Assembly (NCBI GenBank): GCA_001785725.1 | Contig: MFUQ01000003.1 | Span: 1-33,144 of the forward strand | Length of the DNA: 33,144 nt | Source of the DNA: Candidatus Nomurabacteria bacterium RIFCSPLOWO2_01_FULL_36_10b | GTDB taxonomy: Bacteria > Patescibacteriota > Minisyncoccia > Phycocordibacterales > UBA1006 | Direction: 5' to 3' | In this document: one piece after another, positions 1,411-33,144 of the stretch | Layout: each line of letters opens with the position of its first letter | How positions within the stretch are numbered: the first letter of the stretch is position 1 | Program-made: the position numbers and the translations under genes | The notes under the pieces: model-generated | Databases searched by the model: none | The model's input: only the letters and a program-made list of their open reading frames with translations | Told to the model about the DNA's origin: nothing

Positions 1411-2643
1411 CTAACTATAATAATCTTTCAAAAAATTTTCTTTAAATAAATTAAAATTACCATCAATAATTGATTGCCTAATATCTTTCATTAATTGAAC
1501 AAGAAAAAATATATTATGTTGCGACACAATCATAGAAGCAAGCATTTCGTGCGAATGATAAAGGTGAGAAATATAAGCACGAGTATATTGCATTGAAACT
1601 GGCGATGAAGTTGTTATATCAAGTTTAGACATATCGCTTCTATATTTAGAGTTTCTTAAGTTCACTATTCCATTTTTTGTATACATGTGGCCATGACGAG
1701 CAAGACGTGTTGGAATTACGCAATCAAATGTGTCACATCCCGCTTCAACGGCAAGAAAAATATCAATAGGTTCACCAATTCCAAGAAGATGCCGTGGTTT
1801 CTCTTCTGGCAGTTCTTCATTTACCCATCGTACAGCAGTGCCAATATCATCTTTCGTAAATGACCCGCCAATACCAAAACCATCAAAATCCATAGCACCA
1901 AGTGTACGTGCTGATTCGCGACGCAAGTCCTCATATTGGCCACCCTGCACAACACCAAAGATGGCCTGATAGAAACGTGTGTCATCAGGTGGCACATTAG
2001 ATTTTAAACGTTTATGTTCACGTAATGATTGCTCTGCCCAACGATGAGTGCGCGCAAGAGCTTCTTCTTGATAATCACGAGGGACTTGCGGAGATGTACA
2101 TTCATCAAATGCAAAAATAATATCAGCCCCAAGATTCCATTGAATTTGCATTGATTTTTCTGGAGTAAAACGATGTTCGGAACCATCAATGTGAGATTTG
2201 AATGTTACTCCTTCTTCATCAATAGCGCAGAGTTTTTCTGTCCCCTCCTGCCCACGCTTAGCGTGGGCATCCTCCCCAGAATTTGGGAGGATTAGAGAAG
2301 AAGCCATAATTTTACTTACCTTCTTGCCATAAGCCTCTCCTAAAGAAAAAACTTGAAATCCGCCCGAATCAGTGAAAATTGGGCCAGACCAATTCATAAA
2401 AGAATGAAGACCACCTGCACGAGAAACAATATCATCACCCGGTTGTAAATATAAATGATATGTATTTGCTAATACAGCTTGCGCTCCTGTCGCGAGTATC
2501 ATATCTGACGTCATTGCTTTTACTGTTGCTTTCGTGCCAACAACAATAAGGGCGGGGGTTTCTATATCACCATGTTGTGTATGAATAACGCCAGCACGAG
2601 CGTTGCTACCCTTCATTTTTTGTTGGATGTTAAATGAAAACAT
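1411..2643 (-). CDS. tgt: tRNA-guanine transglycosylase (queuine tRNA-ribosyltransferase family), divergent
   Basis: The 410-aa ORF carries the family motifs VGTKATVKA, LANTYHLYLQPG, TDSGGFQVFSL, FAFDECT, FGVVQGG, LLGIGEP, FDCVIPTR and TRAYISHL...QHNI. It has a 34-aa net insertion after FSLG. The Zn-site cysteines are absent (see findings). Confidence 0.9.
   Translation of the reverse strand: MFSFNIQQKMKGSNARAGVIHTQHGDIETPALIVVGTKATVKAMTSDMILATGAQAVLANTYHLYLQPGDDIVSRAGGLHSFMNWSGPIFTDSGGFQVFSLGEAYGKKVSKIMASSLILPNSGEDAHAKRGQEGTEKLCAIDEEGVTFKSHIDGSEHRFTPEKSMQIQWNLGADIIFAFDECTSPQVPRDYQEEALARTHRWAEQSLREHKRLKSNVPPDDTRFYQAIFGVVQGGQYEDLRRESARTLGAMDFDGFGIGGSFTKDDIGTAVRWVNEELPEEKPRHLLGIGEPIDIFLAVEAGCDTFDCVIPTRLARHGHMYTKNGIVNLRNSKYRSDMSKLDITTSSPVSMQYTRAYISHLYHSHEMLASMIVSQHNIFFLVQLMKDIRQSIIDGNFNLFKENFLKDYYS
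2241..2292. repeat. GC-rich compound-hairpin repeat (family 1, copy C) embedded in frame in tgt
   Basis: tCCCCTCc-TGCCCACGC-tta-GCGTGGGCA-t-CCTCCC-cagaattt-GGGAGG-at. The 9-bp and 6-bp stems are read directly. The core CCACGCTTAGCGTGG differs at one base from 30452-30466. Confidence 0.6.
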
Positions 2644-2673: not shown

Positions 2674-3468
2674 CTACTTACTTATCTGCACATATCTCAA
2701 TGATGATAACGAAACTGGAACACGCGCATATATTTTCTGCGATGGGTCACGCGGGTCAGATACAATTGAAACAACAACAGCTATAATATTTCTAGAACTT
2801 GATTGGTCTGTAATTATATCACCAACACTTATTTCCATTTGTTGTGAAACTTCTGTTTTAAAACTACCACCACCGCGACCATACAAAGTAATAACTGATT
2901 GTGATGGACTATGATATCCTACAATTTCATTACTTGGTGCAGAATATAATACTACATGCGATGTTGTTGCCATACTTTTTGTAACAACACCTAAAATAAT
3001 TTTATTTGAAGCAAACACGCGATCTCCAACAATTACACCATCATATGAACCACGATCAAGAATAAGACTATCATATGGTATTTGTGGCGGTCGTGATGTA
3101 ACAAGAGCTATTGATTTAGGCATAATTTCATATCCTGTAGGAGTTGAATCACTTAACCCAAATAATGCTCCACTACGTGCGATATCAGTTGCTATTTGAA
3201 TATGAGATGACTGTTCAGCTTCTAAAACTTTGATACGTTCATTAATTTCATTTAGAGAACGTTGCATTTCTTTTTTTGATTTAAAAATAGTATTCGCAGT
3301 ATCAATAATTTTATATCGTGTTTGCCAAACTGTTTCATCAATACGAGAAACAGGACCAGTAAGAAGTGGCGCTAAAAGAAGCACTGCAATAATTAATACG
3401 CCTATAATAAGAATCGTTGACGTATATGATGAGGATTGTTTAGCGTGGTGGAAGTTCGTCATATTCAT
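2674..3468 (-). CDS. mreC: Rod shape-determining protein MreC
   Basis: It lies directly downstream of mreB. It has an N-terminal TM segment (ILIIGVLIIAVLLLAPLL), a coiled-coil stretch (KKEMQRSLNEINERIKVLEAEQ) and a C-terminal beta-rich domain with GDRVFAS...GVV and GDIITD-type motifs. The start is taken as the ATG at 3468; the track start at 3495 is a TTG. It overlaps the mreB 3' end by 29 nt. Confidence 0.8.
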   Translation of the reverse strand: MNMTNFHHAKQSSSYTSTILIIGVLIIAVLLLAPLLTGPVSRIDETVWQTRYKIIDTANTIFKSKKEMQRSLNEINERIKVLEAEQSSHIQIATDIARSGALFGLSDSTPTGYEIMPKSIALVTSRPPQIPYDSLILDRGSYDGVIVGDRVFASNKIILGVVTKSMATTSHVVLYSAPSNEIVGYHSPSQSVITLYGRGGGSFKTEVSQQMEISVGDIITDQSSSRNIIAVVVSIVSDPRDPSQKIYARVPVSLSSLRYVQISK

Positions 3469-4501: not shown

Positions 4502-5757
4502 TATGAATTAAATTTATTAAGTACTTCTTCAATACTCATAACAGTGCTCTCCGCGCCATTCCGCGCCTTAACTTCAACGCCCCCCGCTTCTCGTGAACGC
4601 TTACTCATTACAACGCGCCACGGAATGCCAATGAGATCAGCGTCACTAAATTTTTCACCAGCGCTTATATCACGCCTATCATCAAAAAGCACCTCAACGC
4701 CTCGCTTACATAAACTAATGTAAAACTCTTCTGCTTCTTTCTGCAATTCATCGTCTCCACCATCAAGTGATAGCAAATGTACTTTAAATGGCGCTACACT
4801 TTCAGGCCATACAATACCACCATCATCAGCAAATAATTCTACAATAACGCCCATAATACGTGATAACCCAATACCATATGAACCCATAAAAATAGGATGA
4901 GTAGCACCTTTTTCATCAGTATACACAAGATCAAGTGGCTTGGAGAACTTTGTGCCAAGCGTAAAGATGTTGCCGACTTCTGCGGCATTTACTTTCTGCA
5001 TTTTATTTTTATCTAATCCAATGTTAGACAAAACTTCATCCGTATACACTTCCTCATTCACAGCTAATTTTTTATCATAATCAACGTATATAGAATCTTC
5101 TCCTGATGGCATTATTGTTTGAAATTCGTGTGAGAACTTAGCGAATGACCCACCTGAAGAAAAAGTTATAAACGTTTTCTCGCCAATTCCTAAACGTTCA
5201 TAAACACGATTATATACTTCTTTCATTTTGTCATAAAAAATTTGATGCTCCGCTTCGCCACGAGAAAAAGAATATAAATCTTTCATCAGAAATTCTCGTC
5301 CACGCAAAAGACCTGATTTAGCGCGCATTTCGTTACGAAACTTTGTTTGTATTTGATATATGAAAACTGGAAGGTCACGATATGATGAAATGTGATGTTT
5401 AACTAAAGCAGTCAATGGTTCCTCATGAGTAAAACCAAAACCAACTTGCCCTCCAGCTTTAAGTTCACTCTTAAACCAATTATCAACAACTTTATCATCC
5501 CAACGTCCAGTTGCTTGCCATGTTTCTGGGTTTTGTAATGCAGTCATATAAATCTCTTGCCCGCCAGCACTATTCATTTCCTCGCGAATAATATTATTAA
5601 TTTTTGAGAGTACTCTTAATCCAAGCGGTAAAAAAGAATATGCTCCGGCTACTTCCTTATGTATATATCCAGCTCGAACCAATAATTGCGCGTTTTTGGC
5701 AACTTCGTCCGTTGGTATCTCATGACGTGTTTTAGTAAAAAGTTGTGATTGTTTCAT
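4501..5757 (-). CDS. proS: Proline--tRNA ligase, bacterial-like but lacking the INS editing domain
   Basis: Start taken at the ATG at 5757 (MKQSQLFTKTRHEIPTDEVAKNAQLLVRAGYI...). Class II motifs are present: FRNEMRAKSGLLRGREFLMKDLYSF and GSYGIGLSRIMG. The C-terminal anticodon-binding domain is present. At 418 aa there are only ~45 residues where the ~180-aa INS domain sits in E. coli ProRS. The stop overlaps the mreB ATG (TAATG). Confidence 0.9.
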   Translation of the reverse strand: MKQSQLFTKTRHEIPTDEVAKNAQLLVRAGYIHKEVAGAYSFLPLGLRVLSKINNIIREEMNSAGGQEIYMTALQNPETWQATGRWDDKVVDNWFKSELKAGGQVGFGFTHEEPLTALVKHHISSYRDLPVFIYQIQTKFRNEMRAKSGLLRGREFLMKDLYSFSRGEAEHQIFYDKMKEVYNRVYERLGIGEKTFITFSSGGSFAKFSHEFQTIMPSGEDSIYVDYDKKLAVNEEVYTDEVLSNIGLDKNKMQKVNAAEVGNIFTLGTKFSKPLDLVYTDEKGATHPIFMGSYGIGLSRIMGVIVELFADDGGIVWPESVAPFKVHLLSLDGGDDELQKEAEEFYISLCKRGVEVLFDDRRDISAGEKFSDADLIGIPWRVVMSKRSREAGGVEVKARNGAESTVMSIEEVLNKFNS

Positions 5758-5928: not shown

Positions 5929-6417
5929 TTATATTACTTTTGGGGTATTCCCATCGATCTCAGCATTTGCTGAGTGATGATTTTCTAAGAAAAGCTCGAG
6001 TAATTTCTCGAGTTTTTCTTTTACTCTAAACATGCCCTTCTCATCAAGTTGCCCTAACTTACGTTGGAAACGTTTCGTATGTAACATACGTATCTGATAT
6101 AACAGAACATATCTTTTGTGCTCTTGAAATGTGACGTCAATAAACCATGTACCTATTTTCTCTTTTGAAGATAGTGGTAATATAATGCAGATATCACTTG
6201 ATAATTTTTTAAAAACAAGAATAGGACGTCTAAATTCTTTCCCTTTCCCATACGATTCTCTACCAACATTCAAACCCAATGAACACCACCAAATGTCACC
6301 CTCGCGAAAATATATATTTCTAAACGATGGAAAAGCGATATCTTTCTTACGCTCATTCCACTCATCATACAAAGAGATGAGAATATCATTCTTGTCTTCA
6401 GTAATTTCAGTCTTCAT
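5929..6417 (-). CDS. PemK/MazF-fold toxin-like protein, solitary
   Basis: The 162-aa ORF contains GDIWWCSLGLNVGRESYGKGKEFRRPILVFKKLS...CIILPLSSKEK...YVLLYQIRMLHTKRF. This matches the MazF/PemK core pattern: GD-hydrophobic, G-x-E, RP-hydrophobic-V/L, then a P-L/C-T/S-S strand. It has a 38-aa N-terminal extension and a helical C-terminal tail. Confidence 0.6.
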   Translation of the reverse strand: MKTEITEDKNDILISLYDEWNERKKDIAFPSFRNIYFREGDIWWCSLGLNVGRESYGKGKEFRRPILVFKKLSSDICIILPLSSKEKIGTWFIDVTFQEHKRYVLLYQIRMLHTKRFQRKLGQLDEKGMFRVKEKLEKLLELFLENHHSANAEIDGNTPKVI

Positions 6418-6672: not shown

Positions 6673-7353
6673 ATGTCAGATATAAATAATTTAATTGAGC
6701 AGATGTATACTGCAGGTCTTCAGACAGGATATACTCGTAGTCGTAGACATCCAAGCACACAAGACGCAATCTATGCTATTAAAAATCGCATAGATATTAT
6801 TGACCTTACACAAACCGCAAAAGTCCTTGTTGAGGCACAAGAATTTCTCGCTGGTATAAAACGAGCAGGTAAGAAAATTCTATTCGTTGGTACAAAACCA
6901 GAAATCAAGCGCCTGATTACAGAAGCGGCGGAGCATGCTGATATGCCATATATTACAAAACGTTGGGTCGGTGGCATTCTTACAAATTTCAAAGAAATTC
7001 GCGGACGAATTAACATATTAGATGACCTTGAAGACCGCAAAGCAACAAATCGTCTTATTTATCGCACGAAGAAAGAGCGTCTGCTTCTTGAAAGAACAAT
7101 TGATAAACTCAATGCGAACTTTGGCGGTATAAAAGATATGAAAGATTTACCTGGAGCTCTAGTTATTATTGACCCTCTTAAAGAAAATAATGCAGTGAAA
7201 GAAACGCGAATAAAAAATATACCGATTGTAGCGCTTGGTAATACTGATTGTGATATGAGTGTTATTGAATATCCAATTATTGGTAATGATGCTACGCAAG
7301 CAAGTGTTTCATTGATATTAAATGCTTTAGTAGAAGCAATGAAGACCATCTGA
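6673..7353 (+). CDS. rpsB: 30S ribosomal protein S2
   Basis: Start at the ATG at 6673; the track start at 6652 is a TTG. Motifs: LIEQMYTAGLQTGYTRSRRHPS, IIDLTQT, ILFVGTKPE, RWVGGILTNF, PGALVIIDP and IPIVALGNTDCD, a typical S2. It sits directly upstream of tsf, the conserved rpsB-tsf pair. Confidence 0.93.
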   Translation: MSDINNLIEQMYTAGLQTGYTRSRRHPSTQDAIYAIKNRIDIIDLTQTAKVLVEAQEFLAGIKRAGKKILFVGTKPEIKRLITEAAEHADMPYITKRWVGGILTNFKEIRGRINILDDLEDRKATNRLIYRTKKERLLLERTIDKLNANFGGIKDMKDLPGALVIIDPLKENNAVKETRIKNIPIVALGNTDCDMSVIEYPIIGNDATQASVSLILNALVEAMKTI

Positions 7354-7442: not shown

Positions 7443-7898
7443 ATGATTACAACAGAACAAATAAAACAACTCCGCGACGAAACAAGTATTTCTATTAGCA
7501 AGTGTCGTGAAGCACTTGAACAATCTGAAGGGGATATGGATAAAGCTCGCGCAATTCTTCGCGAACAAGGCGCATCATCAGCCGAAAAAAAAGCAGGCCG
7601 TGAACTAAAAGCAGGACTTATTGTGTCATATATTCATAGTAACCAACAAATGGGGGCGATCCTTGAGATGAACTGCGAAAGTGATTTTGTCGCAAAGACA
7701 GAGGATTTTATTACGCTCGCCAACAATATCGCGCTTCACATTACAGCAATGAGTTCTCCTGACAAAGAATCGCTCTTGGCGGAATCATTTGTAAAAAATC
7801 CTGAAATGACAGTATTGCAAATGATAGAAGCAGTAACACAAAAAACTGGCGAACGTATTGATGTCGGGACTTTCAGCCGCATTGCAGTTTTAGGATAA
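7443..7898 (+). CDS. tsf: Elongation factor Ts, short form (151 aa)
   Basis: ATG at 7443: MITTEQIKQLRDETSISISKCREALEQSEGDMDKARAILREQG is the EF-Ts N-terminal UBA-like domain. It is followed by GLIVSYIHSNQQMGAILEMNCESDFVAKTEDF, the core motif. It lies downstream of rpsB. Confidence 0.85.
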   Translation: MITTEQIKQLRDETSISISKCREALEQSEGDMDKARAILREQGASSAEKKAGRELKAGLIVSYIHSNQQMGAILEMNCESDFVAKTEDFITLANNIALHITAMSSPDKESLLAESFVKNPEMTVLQMIEAVTQKTGERIDVGTFSRIAVLG

Positions 7899-7973: not shown

Positions 7974-8312
7974 ATGTTAATTTTATTTATAATTTTTATA
8001 GGAAGTCTAGCAATAGTTGGAGTAATGATTGGGTGGAAGCTCGTAACTCTTCCAAAACACCCGTCTGAACAAGCCACGAACTTTCATTCTGCCCCATTTC
8101 TGTTTCGTCATCACGATGAACCAATAATTGACCTTATAACTCTGCAAAAAAATATATGGCGTTATGTATTTTATTATCTCCGTGAGATTTTAATTCTAAT
8201 TATTGTTTATCCACTTCTAGGCGTTGAACAACTCTCTCGTTTTTTATCAAAACACATTCACTACTTCATAGAGCAAACGTTGGGGTATCATCATACGCAT
8301 ATTAAGCATTAA
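7974..8312 (+). CDS. Hypothetical small membrane protein
   Basis: ATG at 7974 gives MLILFIIFIGSLAIVGVMIGWKL (TM1) and a second hydrophobic segment, ILILIIVYPLLGV. I recognise no family. A terminator follows. Confidence 0.4.
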   Translation: MLILFIIFIGSLAIVGVMIGWKLVTLPKHPSEQATNFHSAPFLFRHHDEPIIDLITLQKNIWRYVFYYLREILILIIVYPLLGVEQLSRFLSKHIHYFIEQTLGYHHTHIKH

Positions 8313-8323
8313 TGGTAAACAAC

Positions 8324-8365
8324 GAAACCCCACCCCGTTTGACGGGGCGAGGTTTCAAATTTTTA
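8324..8365 (+). terminator. Intrinsic terminator-like hairpin (family 2, copy a)
   Basis: GAAACCCCACCCCG-tttga-CGGGGCGAGGTTTC pairs at 12 of 14 positions and is followed by aaattttt. Its 5' arm AAACCCCACCCCGT is identical to 10404-10417. Confidence 0.65.
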
Positions 8366-8414: not shown

Positions 8415-8487
8415 GCCACCTTAGCTCAGTTGGTAGAGCAACGGTTTTGTAAACCGTAGGTCCTCGGTTCAAGCCCGAGAGGTGGCT
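8415..8487 (+). tRNA. tRNA-Thr (anticodon UGU), 73 nt, CCA not encoded
   Basis: The cloverleaf was folded by hand. The acceptor GCCACCT pairs with AGGTGGC. The D arm is GCTC-agttggta-GAGC. The anticodon stem ACGGT/ACCGT carries the loop ttTGTaa. The variable loop is aggtc, the T arm is CTCGG-ttcaagc-CCGAG and the discriminator is T. The next bases are cag. Confidence 0.95.
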
Positions 8488-8508
8488 CAGCAATTAAAAC
8501 CCGATGTT

Positions 8509-9084
8509 ATGAATAAAAAAATGTACAACAAAAATCGCTGTCTGTGGGTTGACGATGACGAAAGAATGAAGATTTACCACGACACAGTTTGGGGAATCCC
8601 AAAGAAAAAAGATATGGACATTTTTGAGGCGATTGTTCTAGACACTCAACAAGCTGGTCTGTCTTGGAAATGCATTTTACATAAACGCAATAATTTTGCT
8701 AGGGCTTTTTGCAATTTCGATCCGAAAAAGATAGCTAAAATGACTAAGAAAGATGTTGCGAGACTGATGAAAGATAGTGGAATTATTCGTAATCGTCTAA
8801 AGATAGAAGCGACGATTGAAAACGCAAAAAGATTTCTTGAAATTCAAAAAGGATTTAAAACTTTTTCAAAATACATCTGGTCTTTCACTGGCGGAAAAAG
8901 TATTGTCGGCCATCCGAAAAACTTGAAAAATTATCGCTCTCACTCCACTGAATCTATATTAATGAGCAATGACCTTAAAAAACGCGGTTTTAAATTTGCC
9001 GGTCCAACTATTTGTTACGCTTTTATGCAAGGAATTGGAATGGTCAAAGACCACACGGTGAATTGTTGGAAGTATAAGAAATAA
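8509..9084 (+). CDS. tag: DNA-3-methyladenine glycosylase I
   Basis: ATG at 8509; the track GTG start at 8482 lies inside the tRNA. Motifs: CLWVDDDERMKIYHDTVWGIP, QAGLSWKCILHKR, IIRNRLKIEA, LKKRGFKFAGPTICYAFMQGIGMVKDH..C. This is the Tag family with its Zn-site Cys/His pattern. Confidence 0.9.
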   Translation: MNKKMYNKNRCLWVDDDERMKIYHDTVWGIPKKKDMDIFEAIVLDTQQAGLSWKCILHKRNNFARAFCNFDPKKIAKMTKKDVARLMKDSGIIRNRLKIEATIENAKRFLEIQKGFKTFSKYIWSFTGGKSIVGHPKNLKNYRSHSTESILMSNDLKKRGFKFAGPTICYAFMQGIGMVKDHTVNCWKYKK

Positions 9085-9122: not shown

Positions 9123-10376
9123 TTAAGAATAATATTCTTCCTTTACTTTTCTCATAACAAAATATGAAATAAGAACAAGAACTCCCAGTGAACCGATCGC
9201 AAATCTATACTTTGTTTCTTCGCCAGCAAAAGCAAAAATAATAGTGGAAAAAGACCAAATCAATGGGCCAAGAATTGAAGCAAATCTTTCAAACAAAACA
9301 TACATACCAAAATATTTTGCTGGTTCATCTTTTGGAATAATTTTTGAATAGATTATCCTTGACAAGCTAAATAGTATTCCAAAAGCAAGCCCATTTAAAC
9401 CGATTATAATCGTCATTTGTGTTGGTGTAATCGCGAGAGCTAGAACAAAAAGTAATAGAGACCAAATAACAATTATTATACTGATGGCCCTTTTCAAATT
9501 GCCAATTTTTTTATGGAACCATGGCGTTAACAGCGCGCCAATTACTGCAGTAAGCAACCCAATAGAAAATGCGACGGTTCTTAATCCAGAATCCAAAAGC
9601 CCAACTTTATCAAGATATAGCGAAGCAAATAATTGAAGTGTTAGTATCGCATCGGCAAATAAATAATATGCTATTAAATACCAGAGAACATTTTTTTCTT
9701 TCTTGAGAATAGTAAATTGCGCAAATAACTCTTTGAAAGATCTTGGTAAAAAACTTACTTGCCTATCAATATGGTAATCTTCTTCCTTAAATTTCTTATT
9801 GAAAATAAAGAAAAATATCAAAAACAAAATCGCGCCAAAACAAAAAGCTAACGGGATTTTACTTAATCCAAGAATGTTTAGGTCTGAACCAACTATGAAA
9901 AAAGCTATAGCTAACCCAACTATATTACCAAGTTGCCCTATCGCAAGGCCGAGACTAGCAACAAAATCACGTGAATGTCTTTGCGAAAGACTCTGCAAAA
10001 AAGGAAGGTAGAAGGCCATTGCAATTTGATAAAAATATTGAAAGAGAAAATAGAAAATTATGACAAAAATAAATAGATTAGAATTCAATATAATTTTTGA
10101 CGCAAAAATTCCTAGCAGTATCAAAGCACAAATGGCTAATATCGTTGTAGTGTATAAAGCTGGTTTATATCTTTTTACTTTATCTATAACTGATCCTAGA
10201 AATGGCAGTGTCGCAAGTAATAGAAATGTTGTTATAGCGACAGGAACACTTACCCAAACATCACTTTTACCCAATTGACTAACAACAAACAATGAAAAAT
10301 AGAAAGAAACAATTATAGATGCTAATGAATTAGCAAAATCATATAAACTCCATATCCAAGGATTTGATTTTTCCAT
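9123..10376 (-). CDS. MFS transporter, UMF1/Atg22-like family
   Basis: The 417-aa ORF has about 12 hydrophobic segments. The N-terminal WSLYDFANSLASIIVSFYF is characteristic of the UMF1 family (YDFANS motif). Confidence 0.75.
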   Translation of the reverse strand: MEKSNPWIWSLYDFANSLASIIVSFYFSLFVVSQLGKSDVWVSVPVAITTFLLLATLPFLGSVIDKVKRYKPALYTTTILAICALILLGIFASKIILNSNLFIFVIIFYFLFQYFYQIAMAFYLPFLQSLSQRHSRDFVASLGLAIGQLGNIVGLAIAFFIVGSDLNILGLSKIPLAFCFGAILFLIFFFIFNKKFKEEDYHIDRQVSFLPRSFKELFAQFTILKKEKNVLWYLIAYYLFADAILTLQLFASLYLDKVGLLDSGLRTVAFSIGLLTAVIGALLTPWFHKKIGNLKRAISIIIVIWSLLLFVLALAITPTQMTIIIGLNGLAFGILFSLSRIIYSKIIPKDEPAKYFGMYVLFERFASILGPLIWSFSTIIFAFAGEETKYRFAIGSLGVLVLISYFVMRKVKEEYYS

Positions 10377-10402: not shown

Positions 10403-10450
10403 AAAAAACACTAAAACCCCACCCCGTCAGACGGAGTAGGGCTTTAAATG
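10403..10450 (-). terminator. Intrinsic terminator-like hairpin downstream of the DUF378 gene (family 2, copy b)
   Basis: AAAACCCCACCCCGT-cag-ACGGAGTAGGGCTTT is an imperfect hairpin. On the minus strand it is followed by ttttagtgtttttt, and on the plus strand by aaatgttttt. Confidence 0.55.
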
Positions 10451-10472
10451 TTTTTAAATAAAGTGCTATTTG

Positions 10473-10937: not shown

Positions 10938-12230
10938 TCAGTAGTCAAGTAACTTCTTTACTTTCTCATTATTACGTATTTTATCATGCACTTTTGCCTC
11001 AATTTGACGTATACGCTCGCGAGTAACACCAAATTTGCTTCCAACTTGTTCAAGTGTATGATTAACACCATTATACATACCAAGACCATAACGCATTTCA
11101 ATAATGCAACGCTCTTTTTCGGGTAAATCAGAAAGAATTTCTTCAATCTGGTCATGAAGAATGCGTTTAGAAACATCAACAGTCGGTGGCGCTACTTGGT
11201 CGTCAGCAATAAAATCACTACGAGCCGACTTTTCGTCGCTATCATCTGATAATGGCTCTTCCAGCGACAATGTGGATTGATTAATTTTTTCAATCATGTA
11301 AATTTTCTCAACTTCAATTTCCATCTCTGCGGCTATTTCTTCAGGCAGTGGTTTGCGACCAAGATCTTGAGAAAGGCGACGATAAACCTGTTTGTACTTT
11401 GAAATTGTTTCAACCATGTGCACAGGAATACGAATCGTACGCGATTGATCAGCTAGTGCGCGAGTGATTGATTGGCGAATCCACCACATTGCATATGTTG
11501 AAAATTTATATCCTTTTGTCCAGTCAAACTTATTAACTGCCTTGAACAAGCCAAGATTCCCTTCTTGTATAAGGTCAAGGAGCGTTAAGTCGGGAGTACG
11601 GCCAACATATTTCTTTGCGACAGACACAACAAGACGCAAGTTCGCATTTGCTAGAAGATTTTCTGCTTCTTTGTCGCCCGCTTCAATGCGTTGAGCAAGC
11701 TCTCTTTCTTCTGCCGCTTTTATAAGTGGGTATCTACCAATTTCTTTTAGATACATCTGAATTGAGTCATATGGACTTGATGATAACTCTATTTCTTTTA
11801 AATTAATGAGTTCCTCATTACTTCCTAAATCAGATATTTTTGAAAGGTCTAAAAGATCAGCTCCTTCTGATATTTCAACTCCGGCATCCTCTAATGCTCT
11901 ATATACCTCATCCAAAAACATTATGTCATTCTCAATATCAGGAAATGCTTTTAGCATTTCGTCGTATGTGATGAAATGACGTTTTTTGCCTTTTTCAATA
12001 AGTTGATTGAGAACTACATCACGACTAATCGGTTTTTCTGTCTTCTTTATTTTACTTGAAGAACGTGGCAAAACTTTTATATGGGATTGTCGCTTTGAAG
12101 ATGACGCTTGTTTTTTGGTCATTTTCCAACCCTTTTTATTTCGAGCAGATAGCTTGCTCGTAGCACGTTTCAACACATATGTTGATTTTTTTGACTTTTT
12201 TGGTTTTTGCTTGTACGCTTTTTTTCGCAT
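10938..12230 (-). CDS. rpoD: Primary RNA polymerase sigma factor (sigma-70/RpoD) with a basic N-terminal extension
   Basis: Region 1.1-like [16 protein letters not shown]. Region 1.2 [16 protein letters not shown]. Region 2 [53 protein letters not shown]. Region 3 IRIPVHMVE. Region 4 [20 protein letters not shown]. The start could be the ATG at 12230 or at 12122. Confidence 0.95.
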
Positions 12231-21765: not shown

Positions 21766-21776
21766 TATTTATATAT

Positions 21777-21807
21777 GCAATCATCCGCGCTAAGCGCGGA
21801 TGATTGC
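21777..21807. repeat. Perfect 14-bp-stem, 3-nt-loop palindrome between the KH gene and trmD
   Basis: GCAATCATCCGCGC-taa-GCGCGGATGATTGC, read directly. It lies 10 nt after the KH stop and 12 nt before the trmD ATG. Confidence 0.8.
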
Positions 21808-21816
21808 AAAGATATA

Positions 21817-22155
21817 TTAAACAACTCCGACATCATCTTTAAGGTCAGCAATAGCAGCGTCAACATCATCAGCATTTGCGGCATGACTTGTCGTATTACC
21901 ACGATAACCGCCAGACGGTTCATTGATTTTCATATTTACGCGCTGTTGATATTTCATACCAACAACACGAAGAATGATACGTAGAGCTTTTGCGGTAGCT
22001 CCACTGCGACCAATAATTTTACCCATATCATCTTGACCCACATCTACAGTGAGAAGAACCCCCATCTCATCTACTTTACGATCAACTTTAACTAACTCTG
22101 GCTTATCAACTAGTGCTTTTAATACATAATCAAGAAATTCTTGTACAGGATCCAT
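21817..22155 (-). CDS. KH-domain RNA-binding protein (YlqC/UPF0109-like) with a C-terminal extension
   Basis: LVDKPELVKVDRKVDEMGVLLTVDVGQDDMGKIIGRSGATAKALRIILRVVG contains the KH GxxG motif (GRSG). It sits between rpsP and trmD, as in many bacteria. About 45 extra C-terminal residues are present. Confidence 0.85.
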   Translation of the reverse strand: MDPVQEFLDYVLKALVDKPELVKVDRKVDEMGVLLTVDVGQDDMGKIIGRSGATAKALRIILRVVGMKYQQRVNMKINEPSGGYRGNTTSHAANADDVDAAIADLKDDVGVV

Positions 22156-22652: not shown

Positions 22653-22704
22653 ATAAAAGAAGATAGTAGCGAAAGTATTATGAAAAGTCAAATTATATAT
22701 TACT

Positions 22705-22768
22705 ATACCCCTCAGTCCTACTACGCTCAAGAGAGCTTCGTAGGACAGCTCCCCTACACTAGGGGAGC
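22705..22768 (+). repeat. GC-rich compound-hairpin repeat (family 1, copy A) in the rpsP/rnr divergent intergenic region
   Basis: ataCCCCTCA-GTCCTAC-tac-GCTC-aaga-GAGC-ttc-GTAGGAC-a-GCTCCCCT-acact-AGGGGAGC. Its ends match the reverse complement of 30418-30492. Confidence 0.8.
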
Positions 22769-22784
22769 AAAAAATTATGAATTA

Positions 22785-30330: not shown

Positions 30331-30417
30331 ATACAGCAGTAATAAATAATGAAACAATAATTATTAAGAGTATAGCATGACATAAAAGAAAAGCTAGTGC
30401 TACCTCTTTTCTTTTAT

Positions 30418-30492
30418 GCTCCCCTAGTTGTAGGGGAGCTCTCCTGCGAAGCCACGCTTGGCGTGGCGAAGCAGGAGTGAGGGGTATGGTAT
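30418..30492 (-). repeat. GC-rich compound-hairpin repeat (family 1, copy B), inverted relative to copy A, abutting the rpmF stop
   Basis: GCTCCCCT-agttgt-AGGGGAGC-t-CTCCTGC-gaa-GCCACGC-ttg-GCGTGGC-gaa-GCAGGAG-tGAGGGGtatggtat. It ends 3 nt from the rpmF TAA (30496-30498). Confidence 0.8.
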
Positions 30493-33051: not shown

Positions 33052-33084
33052 TTAACCCCCATCTGCTCAAGCAGGATGACTTAC

Positions 33085-33144
33085 TCCGAAGAAAAAAGGC
33101 CTCCCCTTAACCCTATCCGAAGAAAGGCCTCCCCCTAACCCTAT
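33085..33144. repeat. Tandem direct repeat (2 units of ~29-31 nt) truncated by the window end
   Basis: TCCGAAGAAAAAAGGCCTCCCCTTAACCCTA (33085-33115) is followed directly by TCCGAAGAAAGGCCTCCCCCTAACCCTAT (33116-33144). The units differ only in homopolymer run lengths. Confidence 0.7.

Follow-up and report, generated by a model that had tools for sequence, protein, structure and literature searches.

The window analysed here, a stretch of 33,144 nucleotides from Candidatus Nomurabacteria bacterium RIFCSPLOWO2_01_FULL_36_10b (contig MFUQ01000003.1), carries at 1411..2643 on the minus strand an intact open reading frame of 410 amino acids, tgt, which encodes a queuine/preQ1 tRNA-ribosyltransferase (Pfam TGT PF01702, E=1e-130; TGT chains of the PDB, E ~1e-93) and hosts a GC-rich palindromic repeat that we call element C. 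The initial annotation had placed this repeat at 2241-2292 and described it as a CCCCTC head followed by two hairpins; we find the same organization at 2242-2291. On the plus strand, antisense to tgt, the head box CCCCTCC (2242..2248) is followed by hairpin 1, the variable hairpin (TGCCCACGC-TTA-GCGTGGGCA, 2249..2269), whose perfect 9-bp stem (2249-2257/2261-2269), closed by CGC-TTA-GCG, is exactly as first described. Next comes hairpin 2, the conserved hairpin (TCCTCCC-CAGAATTT-GGGAGGA, 2270..2291), in which the CTCCC...GGGAG pairing noted earlier forms part of a 7-bp stem (2270-2276/2285-2291) around an 8-nt loop. The full match to the family model described below covers 2234..2298 on the plus strand and encodes approximately residues 118-134 of Tgt (ILPNSGEDAHAKRGQEG).

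Element C differs sharply in composition from the gene that contains it. The core, at ∼2242-2291, has 63-70% GC, compared with 36.6% for the window and 38% for the remainder of tgt, and 2235-2290 is one of only three GC peaks in the window that reach 0.68 or more (40-nt windows). When folded as single-stranded DNA, a 58-mer gave −17.3 kcal/mol for the plus strand and −17.8 for the minus strand, against −6.3 and −6.9 for shuffled sequences; in dinucleotide shuffles this corresponds to z = −5.6 and −5.9 respectively, and 0/200 shuffles were as stable. On the tgt coding strand the element reads ILPNSGEDAHAKRGQEG, as had been proposed, with the frame preserved and open. Of its 17 codons, 11 have G or C in the third position, against a fraction of 0.234 in the rest of tgt (binomial p=3e-4), and the set includes ATC, CTC, GGG (three times) and GCC, all rare in the host genome. 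In ∼49 kb of this genome, element C is the sole strong GC-rich perfect hairpin within a real coding sequence. A strain variant, H126N, falls in hairpin 1 and would break a stem pair if the codon change, inferred from the protein, is CAC to AAC.

Two intergenic sites in the same window, at 22705-22768 and 30418-30492, had been reported to share the layout of the tgt repeat. The first is element A (22700..22774, plus strand), which lies between rpsP (−) and rnr (+); the second is element B (30412..30492, minus strand), which begins ∼10 nt past the rpmF stop codon, upstream of a nusB-NUDIX gene and rnc. Both fold well (z = −6.5 for A and −8.8 for B) and have in common ATACCCCTCA, a hairpin, and then AGCTCCCCTA-loop-TAGGGGAGCA. 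In their hairpin 1 an outer stem of 7 bp leads through a 3x3 internal loop to an apical stem, with two compensatory pair changes between A and B. The layout CCCCTC-N15-45-CTCCCC-N5-12-GGGAG, a pattern written after viewing the sites in question, matches exactly three sites in the window, namely A, B and C, where none is expected from shuffles, and has no match in 80 loci (1.3 Mb) of other genomes. The reported similarity in layout is thus borne out, with the qualification that the tgt copy belongs to another subtype. Similarly, the claimed one-base difference between the core CCACGCTTAGCGTGG and 30452-30466 holds when plus strand is compared with plus strand; the shared layout, however, requires 30418-30492 to be read on the minus strand. 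This mismatch of strands touches only the 3-nt loop, because the stem is palindromic.

Elements A and B exemplify a repeat family that we could follow through public metagenome contigs (contigs and loci fetched for comparison are given here by L numbers). The contig scan used anchors only (TACCCCTCA-N20-50-GCTCCCCTA), the hairpin and 3′ arm not being part of the pattern; ∼70% of the matches were noise and were filtered by demanding the second hairpin, leaving the full architecture in at least ∼30 matches, on contigs that range from 36% to 65% GC. The family unit is ∼50-65 nt: a CCCCTC(A/C) box, then a hairpin whose sequence is free, then a second hairpin of conserved form, (G/C)CTCCCC(T)-loop-(A)GGGGAG(C/G); the head CCCCTC(A/C) is present in all of ∼55 copies. 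Two subtypes can be distinguished. In the L-type, to which A and B belong in canonical form, TACCCCTCA and the variable hairpin are followed by GCTCCCCT..AGGGGAGC, that is, CCCCTCA is combined with GCTCCCC..GGGGAGC; in the R-type, (A)ACCCCTCC and the hairpin are followed by ACCTCCCCT-loop-AGGGGAGG, and CCCCTCC is combined with CCTCCCC..GGGGAGG. The outer pair of hairpin 2 and the seventh base of the box co-vary: A accompanies G..C in 41 copies, which were selected by the search pattern, and C accompanies C..G in 23 copies, which were not (23/26 of the R-type), with ∼6 mixed copies overall. The R-type was recognized from composite copies in a phage contig that carries terminase and baseplate genes and in pDEGR-1, a plasmid of Deinococcus grandis.

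Assignment of element C to this family was examined with two covariance models, R1 for the L-type, in which A and B are part of the training set (and score 65.8 and 61.6 bits respectively), and R2 for the R-type, trained on 20 copies of which none comes from this genome. The E-values are rough because calibration was shortened. With R2, run over the window with filters off, the three best matches in the window were the three sites originally pointed out: A (19.3 bits, E=2.6e-4), C (15.6 bits, E=0.0028) and B (10.1 bits, E=0.098). The match to C, second in rank, is full-length, and the next match in the window, a chance one, had 5.0 bits. R1 scored element C at 13.5 bits (E=0.019); over 1.3 Mb of unrelated loci the same model gave two spurious scores of similar size, together with one real family member from Doudnabacteria. 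Both models align the CCCCTCC of element C to the box columns. An nhmmer profile built from hand-aligned R-type copies did not detect element C; nhmmer is unsuited to a short motif that is split by a variable insert, and Infernal was therefore used.

Exact patterns and a paralogue in another contig are in agreement with the models. The R-type pattern CCCCTCC-N8-38-CCTCCCC-N2-12-GGGAGG has one match in the window, at 2242-2290, with 0 expected, and 27 sites in 17 loci that had originally been fetched for their L-type copies; there were zero matches in the 80 Tgt loci of other genomes (1.3 Mb). Within element C the CCTCCCC..GGGAGG motif spans 2271-2290 and is one G short of the family hairpin 2. 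An intergenic paralogue of element C, at L154:3355-3421, adjoins a canonical copy and has the form GTACCTCCTC-TGCCCGCGC-TAA-GCGCGGGCA-TC..., with box, hairpin 1 and linker as in element C; its hairpin 1 (3371-3389) differs from that of element C by one compensatory change, A-T to G-C. The GC content of this contig is 37.5%, and its tetranucleotide frequencies correlate with those of the window at 0.79. These results agree with one another and show that element C is an R-type member of the family, a sister subtype of the intergenic copies A and B.

The site of the element within Tgt is a loop that is long throughout the clade. PDB alignments of the protein break at query residues 102/141, which in the Zymomonas enzyme are residues 111 and 116, and an alignment of 30 Patescibacteria Tgt sequences delimits a hypervariable, Patescibacteria-specific loop at residues 103-140 (2224..2337, minus strand). 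All 30 have a long loop, between the conserved flanks GEAFGxxVSK[VI]A and KL[AC]xIDEEGV (GEAYGKKVSKI.. and ..KLCAID in the window Tgt), and its centre varies in both length and sequence. At the DNA level, loop length is 17-57 or more amino acids in 23 loci of the candidate phyla radiation (CPR), and 7 amino acids (9 in one case) in the ∼55 loci outside CPR in which the segment was located. The initial annotation had contrasted a 38-residue segment with its short counterpart in Escherichia coli. The expansion is real, but the alignments indicate that it is a clade-wide trait of Patescibacteria Tgt to which the element contributes only ∼17 central residues. Compared with shuffled sequences, most CPR tgt loops fold with z near 0, and the loop of the window tgt is an outlier at z = −4.7. 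In an AlphaFold2 model (mean predicted local distance difference test score, pLDDT, 84; predicted template modelling score 0.86), pLDDT falls below 50 at residues 98-109 and 119-134, the second stretch coinciding with the element-encoded residues. We take the loop that contains element C to be a probably disordered one at the surface, where the initial annotation had expected the insert.

The same alignment revealed a second peculiarity of this Tgt, away from the loop. At residues ∼344-352, the three cysteines that bind zinc in bacterial TGT are missing from the window protein and from its nearest relatives, with TTSSPVSMQY in place of the ECHCAVCQKW of Zymomonas; a histidine further on and the catalytic Asp residues are retained, and C-x-C-x-x-C is kept by more distant Patescibacteria Tgt.

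Family copies also occur in frame in genes other than tgt. One is a canonical L-type copy in a valS gene (L224:11769-11835, 65 bits), which in the context of a Patescibacteria ValRS reads ...GTIE-VPLTPAPDDAGELPYSRGAK-ENMY...; this 27-aa insert is missing from 12/12 relatives of up to 67% identity. The valS contig (k141_1948012) belongs to the ENA assembly ERZ4903055, which also contains the species’ Tgt contig. Its tetranucleotide correlation with the window is 0.86, compared with ∼0.5 for relatives of 66% identity, and both it and the right end of the window carry the repeat GGCCTCCCCC.AACCCCC.TCCAAAGGAGGGGG. Moreover, the ValRS cluster has as a member OGI83292.1 of Candidatus Nomurabacteria bacterium RIFCSPLOWO2_01_FULL_36_10b, and the window Tgt is identical to OGI84086.1, a Candidatus Nomurabacteria cluster member. 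From the shared assembly, tetranucleotides, repeat and cluster names we conclude that the valS copy very likely belongs to the same metagenome-assembled genome (MAG) as the window.

The empty valS site of the nearest relative (L222) reads GAC TAT CCC CTC ACC and is already box-like (TATCCCCTCACC), and no target duplication is visible at the valS site; the sequence thus hints at insertion beside a CCCCTC-like sequence. The relative has a family copy of its own after hsp20, where the window organism has none. Other in-frame copies were found in an M24 aminopeptidase of Doudnabacteria, with 49 amino acids where PDB 1wn1 has 9, and, on higher-GC contigs, in an M16 peptidase and a PHP-domain protein. 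Reading frames are open in all in-frame copies seen. The peptides that they encode differ from copy to copy (VPLTPAPDDAGELPYSRGAK, IPLSQPQAVASSPSLGEQS, ILPNSGEDAHAKRGQEG), as the middle hairpin is free in sequence. The original proposal, that a dispersed repeat has been inserted in frame in the manner of the Rickettsia palindromic elements (RPEs), thus gains support from the covariance models, from these in-frame copies in other genes, from the further copies that exist (A, B, the valS copy, the L154 paralogue and dozens in other genomes), and from the lack of both peptide and palindrome in 23 other CPR Tgt loops and in the two closest relatives fetched; with an artefact also excluded (see below), it withstands each of the refuting conditions set by the initial annotation.

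The family is not particular to this genome. Against annotated plasmids and phages, a BLAST search with consensus copies identified an unannotated intergenic region of Deinococcus grandis pDEGR-1, along with two meaningless partial matches. On the basis of sequence matches, the family spans this Nomurabacteria genome, other CPR, the Deinococcus plasmid, phage contigs and many metagenome contigs of differing GC. R-type units often face an L-type unit as an inverted doublet, as in pDEGR-1 and the phage contig L209; A, B, C and the valS copy are all singlets. Composite copies end in inverted boxes, ACCCCTCAG ... GGAGGGGT, and single units have no second end. At L169:770-890, L180:2040-2230 and L158 (reverse strand, 820-1000) sub-modules are tandemly duplicated, the 5′ boxes being repeated 2-6 times and the 3′ GGGGAGCAG units being repeated as well. 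On the 5′ side of these expansions there are 4-6 copies of ATACCCCTCAGTC(A..), and the 3′ units of L158 are translated in frame (SSPMLGEQRNGDNRVSH...).

At its gene boundaries, the phage contig L209 (IMG/VR, 14.7 kb) carries units of both types, six R and one L (2810-2854, 4867-4911, 6364-6408, 8137-8181, 10244-10288 and 11853-11947). They mostly run in the same direction as the flanking genes, and a (GAATGCC)n microsatellite stands before one of them. Phages are possible carriers of the family, and the L209 units may act as punctuation or terminators. More generally, many copies lie directly past stop codons and are codirectional with the gene (B after rpmF, L088, L209), some with T-runs, so that units may also serve as terminators or stabilizers of RNA ends. 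The genes that neighbour ∼30 family copies are unrelated from copy to copy, which rules out a conserved cis-regulator; for this reason, and because several copies are intragenic, we rejected the idea that A and B regulate ribonuclease genes (rnr; nusB-rnc) in cis as their leaders. An Rfam search of the window and 18 element-bearing loci found only tRNA at the gathering threshold, and known RNA families, whether riboswitch (preQ1 or other), ribozyme or leader, were accordingly rejected as well.

We consider it likely that element C is a somewhat decayed copy of this small, non-autonomous palindromic repeat, which landed antisense in the tgt loop and is read through. In the course of events that we propose, a family copy would have inserted antisense into the loop-coding part of tgt and would have survived with its frame kept open, in a tolerant loop of an essential gene. 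Because only frame-keeping insertions in a tolerant loop survive selection, the copy would be read through as ∼17 extra residues, presumably translated and neutral, and would now be decaying, as the missing G of hairpin 2 and the H126N variant suggest. Several observations nevertheless weigh against this proposal. An empty tgt site from a close relative was not found among the relatives fetched. The closest tgt relatives, P0002 (67% identical, L205) and P0005 (64-66%, L206), share proS-mreB-mreC-tgt synteny, but their loops are unrelated in sequence, with neither an excess of G or C at third codon positions nor a match to the models. Because the loop of the 67% relative has the same length and unrelated sequence, replacement or long divergence is indistinguishable from a clean insertion. 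A scan of genome contigs for Tgt relatives gave none closer than 60% identity among the matches listed, and no empty site. The insert is fixed in every sampled strain, with no presence/absence polymorphism seen, and element C is a moderate match only, its hairpin 2 lacking one G and its E-values coming from a shortened calibration. No transposase or RAYT-like gene is among the Pfam annotations of ∼70 kb of the organism (L001, L003, L224). Finally, unrelated perfect in-frame palindromes are present in other CPR tgt genes (L019, L015 and L025), and the loop may therefore gain hairpins by more than one route.

These last palindromes raise the alternative that the one in tgt was made on the spot, by template-switch (quasipalindrome) mutations in an unconstrained loop, its family likeness being a coincidence or a result of the genome’s habit of capping hairpins with CGC-TTA-GCG. 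In L019, a Paceibacterota MAG, the same loop of tgt contains a stem of 10 bp, and a perfect palindrome of 43 nt with a 20-bp stem encodes a 12-17 aa insert near the former zinc site (7061-7083, 7511-7531 and 7747-7789 are the in-frame palindromes of this locus). L025 has, at 8424-8600, two extra GC-rich hairpins (DPEGKQASYGAN, RPAPYQAEGFGSG) that are absent from its close relatives L009 and L010, and L015 has a 7-bp stem at 10333-10349; no second copy of any of these was found within their own loci. Furthermore, almost every GC-rich hairpin in ∼49 kb of the window genome, that of RNase P RNA included, is capped by CGY-triloop-RCG. Local origin would leave unexplained, however, that a box and two hairpins in the right order and spacing match a model built from other genomes (E ∼0.003), that the L154 paralogue has the same flanks and a compensatory change, and that the exact R-type pattern is missing from 1.3 Mb of control loci; we therefore regard it as very unlikely. 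It is also very unlikely, in our estimate, that the structure is kept for a function, as a domesticated or convergent RNA element such as a processing site for RNase III or another enzyme, a translational pause, or an antisense terminator or stabilizer. Such a role would suit the frequent placement of family members past stop codons and codirectional with the gene, some with T-runs after them, the position of A and B before ribonuclease genes, and the fixation of element C in all strains. Against it, neither the closest relatives nor 23 other CPR tgt genes have a conserved hairpin at this position, the peptide and the palindrome both being absent from all of them, and the gene context of ∼30 family copies is not conserved. 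Element C also lacks an adjacent U-tract on either strand (its 3′ flank is TTAGAGAAG on the plus and GGAGGGGACAGAAAAAC on the minus strand) and hence does not qualify as an intrinsic terminator; its hairpin 2 is already degenerate relative to the consensus, and H126N probably breaks a stem pair in hairpin 1, the nucleotide change being deduced from the protein.

An artefact of assembly or binning, in which a chimeric join or a collapsed repeat put the copy into tgt, would be in keeping with the fact that repeats do break assemblies here, the window itself ending in a tandem repeat of 28 nt that varies in copy number from assembly to assembly. Nevertheless, the same sequence is found in an independent assembly (L001, 99.9% identical across 12.6 kb) and in all eight full-length variants of the protein in the 90% cluster, which come from several samples; it is thus not an assembly artefact. 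The identical insert also recurs in ERZ4903055, in JGI data, in NCBI OGI84086.1 and in further ENA records, representing several samples and assemblers; the tgt frame is uninterrupted, and the residues of the loop on either side are conserved. The probability of an artefact is accordingly negligible. The 401-aa members of the cluster are not partly insert-less variants, as they differ only in alternative start calls.

Returning to the reading of element C as an inserted family copy, a close precedent is provided by the RPEs, in-frame palindromic repeats in housekeeping genes (Ogata et al., 2000; as summarized in PMC10969869). As in RPEs, dispersed palindromes lie in frame in unrelated housekeeping genes (here tgt, valS, M24, M16 and PHP) of a small, AT-rich, reduced genome, with intergenic copies too, and are read through as an extra peptide that is presumably exposed at the surface. 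The two differ in other respects: RPEs are ∼100-150 bp, confined to Rickettsia, in one orientation and with a conserved peptide per family, whereas the present element is ∼50-65 nt, occurs in both orientations relative to the gene and crosses phyla. Element C has neither the length of ∼100-150 bp nor a conserved encoded peptide. In-frame insertion of small palindromic repeats has also been reported occasionally for BOX, ERIC, Coxiella QMITE1 and the MITEs, or miniature inverted-repeat transposable elements, of Anabaena (PMC10969869; PMC5896051).

The family has in common with the repetitive extragenic palindromes (REP) and REPINs, which are mobilized by the IS200/IS605-like Y1 transposase RAYT, a short conserved head with a GC-rich imperfect palindrome, an occurrence as singlets and, in pDEGR-1 and L209, as inverted doublets, a high-copy, non-coding character and the lack of classic target-site duplications, and the box-like empty valS site fits insertion next to a specific short target. 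It differs in that the head is CCCCTC(A/C), not GTAG or CGTC, that each unit has two hairpins, that some copies are intragenic, that no RAYT gene is among the annotations of ∼70 kb, and that the family crosses phyla; REP families are normally species- or genus-specific. By analogy, the singlets and doublets, head, tandem sub-modules, box-like empty site and lack of a visible target duplication resemble REP/REPIN more closely than classical MITEs. With pneumococcal BOX and SPRITE, enterobacterial ERIC and Coxiella QMITE1, which are short modular repeats or MITEs and at times lie in genes (PMC10969869; PMC5896051), the family shares a modular build, tandem sub-modules, terminator-like placement and occasional in-frame fusions to open reading frames, but its sequences are other ones, its unit is much shorter, and terminal inverted repeats or target-site duplications are not demonstrated for single units. 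Mobile GC-rich sequences are also found as the GC clusters of yeast mitochondria, which occur in frame in var1, and as the byp elements of Magnusiomyces mitochondria, which are skipped by the ribosome. They too are GC-rich hairpins, have spread through a small and very AT-rich genome and have come to lie within coding sequence; they are, however, organellar, and bypassing is not suggested here, where all in-frame copies are open. Full-text literature searches for the conserved words TACCCCTCA, GCTCCCCTA and TAGGGGAGC returned only primers and unrelated sequences, and the literature on in-frame palindromic elements and on CPR and Deinococcus repeats yielded known families, with no CPR example and no match. 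The phenomenon is thus already known from RPEs; the element itself is apparently undescribed and unusually widespread, and may have a name elsewhere in the literature.

For the movement of such units our favoured guess, a weak one, is a REP/REPIN-like mobilization that would involve recognition of single-stranded hairpins and insertion beside a CCCCTC-like sequence. The head box and the pyrimidine arm of hairpin 2 form a mirror repeat, with 5′-CCCCTC(C) parallel to the purine arm 5′-GGGGAG(G). From this sequence relationship, the box could lie as a third strand in the major groove of hairpin 2, in a pyrimidine-motif triple helix, and could be the feature recognized by the mobilizing machinery; such recognition might account for the conservation of the same 6-7 bases across phyla. 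The co-variation of box and hairpin 2 is compatible with a triplex, and equally with plain descent of two subfamilies. The wider proposal, that this is an undescribed ∼55-nt two-hairpin family spread across Patescibacteria, Deinococcota, phage and Bacteroidota- or Clostridia-like contigs, with two co-varying subtypes, inverted doublets, tandem sub-modules, CCCCTC-adjacent insertion, in-frame tolerance in essential CPR genes and a box and hairpin 2 capable of forming a triplex, is as a whole put forward tentatively, as a possibility that we would not expect to hold in every part.

Related hairpins were noted elsewhere in the genome. At 33080-33144, continuing into L002-L005, the window ends in the 28-nt tandem repeat CCGAAGAAAGGCCTCCCCCTAACCCTAT, with a copy number of 2 or 3 depending on strain, followed by the hairpin CCCCCTCC-AAA-GGAGGGGG; the near-identical GGCCTCCCCCCAACCCCCCTCCAAAGGAGGGGG lies at L224:14905-14940. 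This repeat is probably a third relative of the CTCCCC/GGGGAG family and a likely cause of the contig break. About 8 kb beyond the left end of the window, the RNase P RNA gene (L001:20744-21196, plus strand; RF00010, E=3e-25, 82 bits where the gathering cut-off is 100) has extra hairpins of the form CUGC-GAA-GCCACGU-UUG-ACGUGGC-GAA-GCAG, of which one is complete and the second lacks the 5′ GAA, together with a CCCCGC-UUA-GCGGGG branch. Hairpin 1 of element B (30440-30476) is nearly the same as the complete extra hairpin, and the element’s hairpin module may have been inserted into, or borrowed from, this structured RNA gene. Nearly all GC-rich hairpins of the genome are capped by CG(C/T)-triloop-(G/A)CG. 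They include a pair at 8317-8364 and 10406-10453 with ∼75% mutual identity (AAACCCCACCCCGT-TTG-ACGGGG...), another at 21767-21817 and others at composite positions ∼37233 and 37283 (L003:3330-3500); CGCTTAGCG/CGCTAAGCG occurs at least 5 times in ∼49 kb, where a base-composition estimate predicts ∼0.1. The capped hairpin is a lineage-specific style common to terminator-like sites, RNase P RNA and repeats. Separately, a Saccharibacteria-labelled MAG (L014:3698-4030) has a 69-codon tgt loop with a fold z of −5.6 and an in-frame TAG; a pseudogene, a recoded codon and an intervening sequence are the candidate readings.

The genomes of CPR/Patescibacteria are among the smallest and most streamlined and are usually called poor in mobile DNA. 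Here, a dispersed selfish repeat persists within essential translation-related genes (tgt and valS) and within peptidase genes of a minimal genome, and the in-frame occurrence of the family in tgt and in other genomes suggests that selfish repeats can colonize CPR coding sequence in much the same way as in Rickettsia. This offers a concrete mechanism for part of the unexplained variation in the length of CPR proteins and possibly of structured RNAs, as the likeness between the RNase P RNA hairpins and element B would indicate. Such inserts inflate apparent protein divergence, and can break CPR assemblies and alignments. Because the conserved parts amount to only ∼25 bases, the family presents a tractable system for the mobility of short elements; its presence in distant phyla and in phages makes it, in addition, a candidate marker of horizontal traffic.

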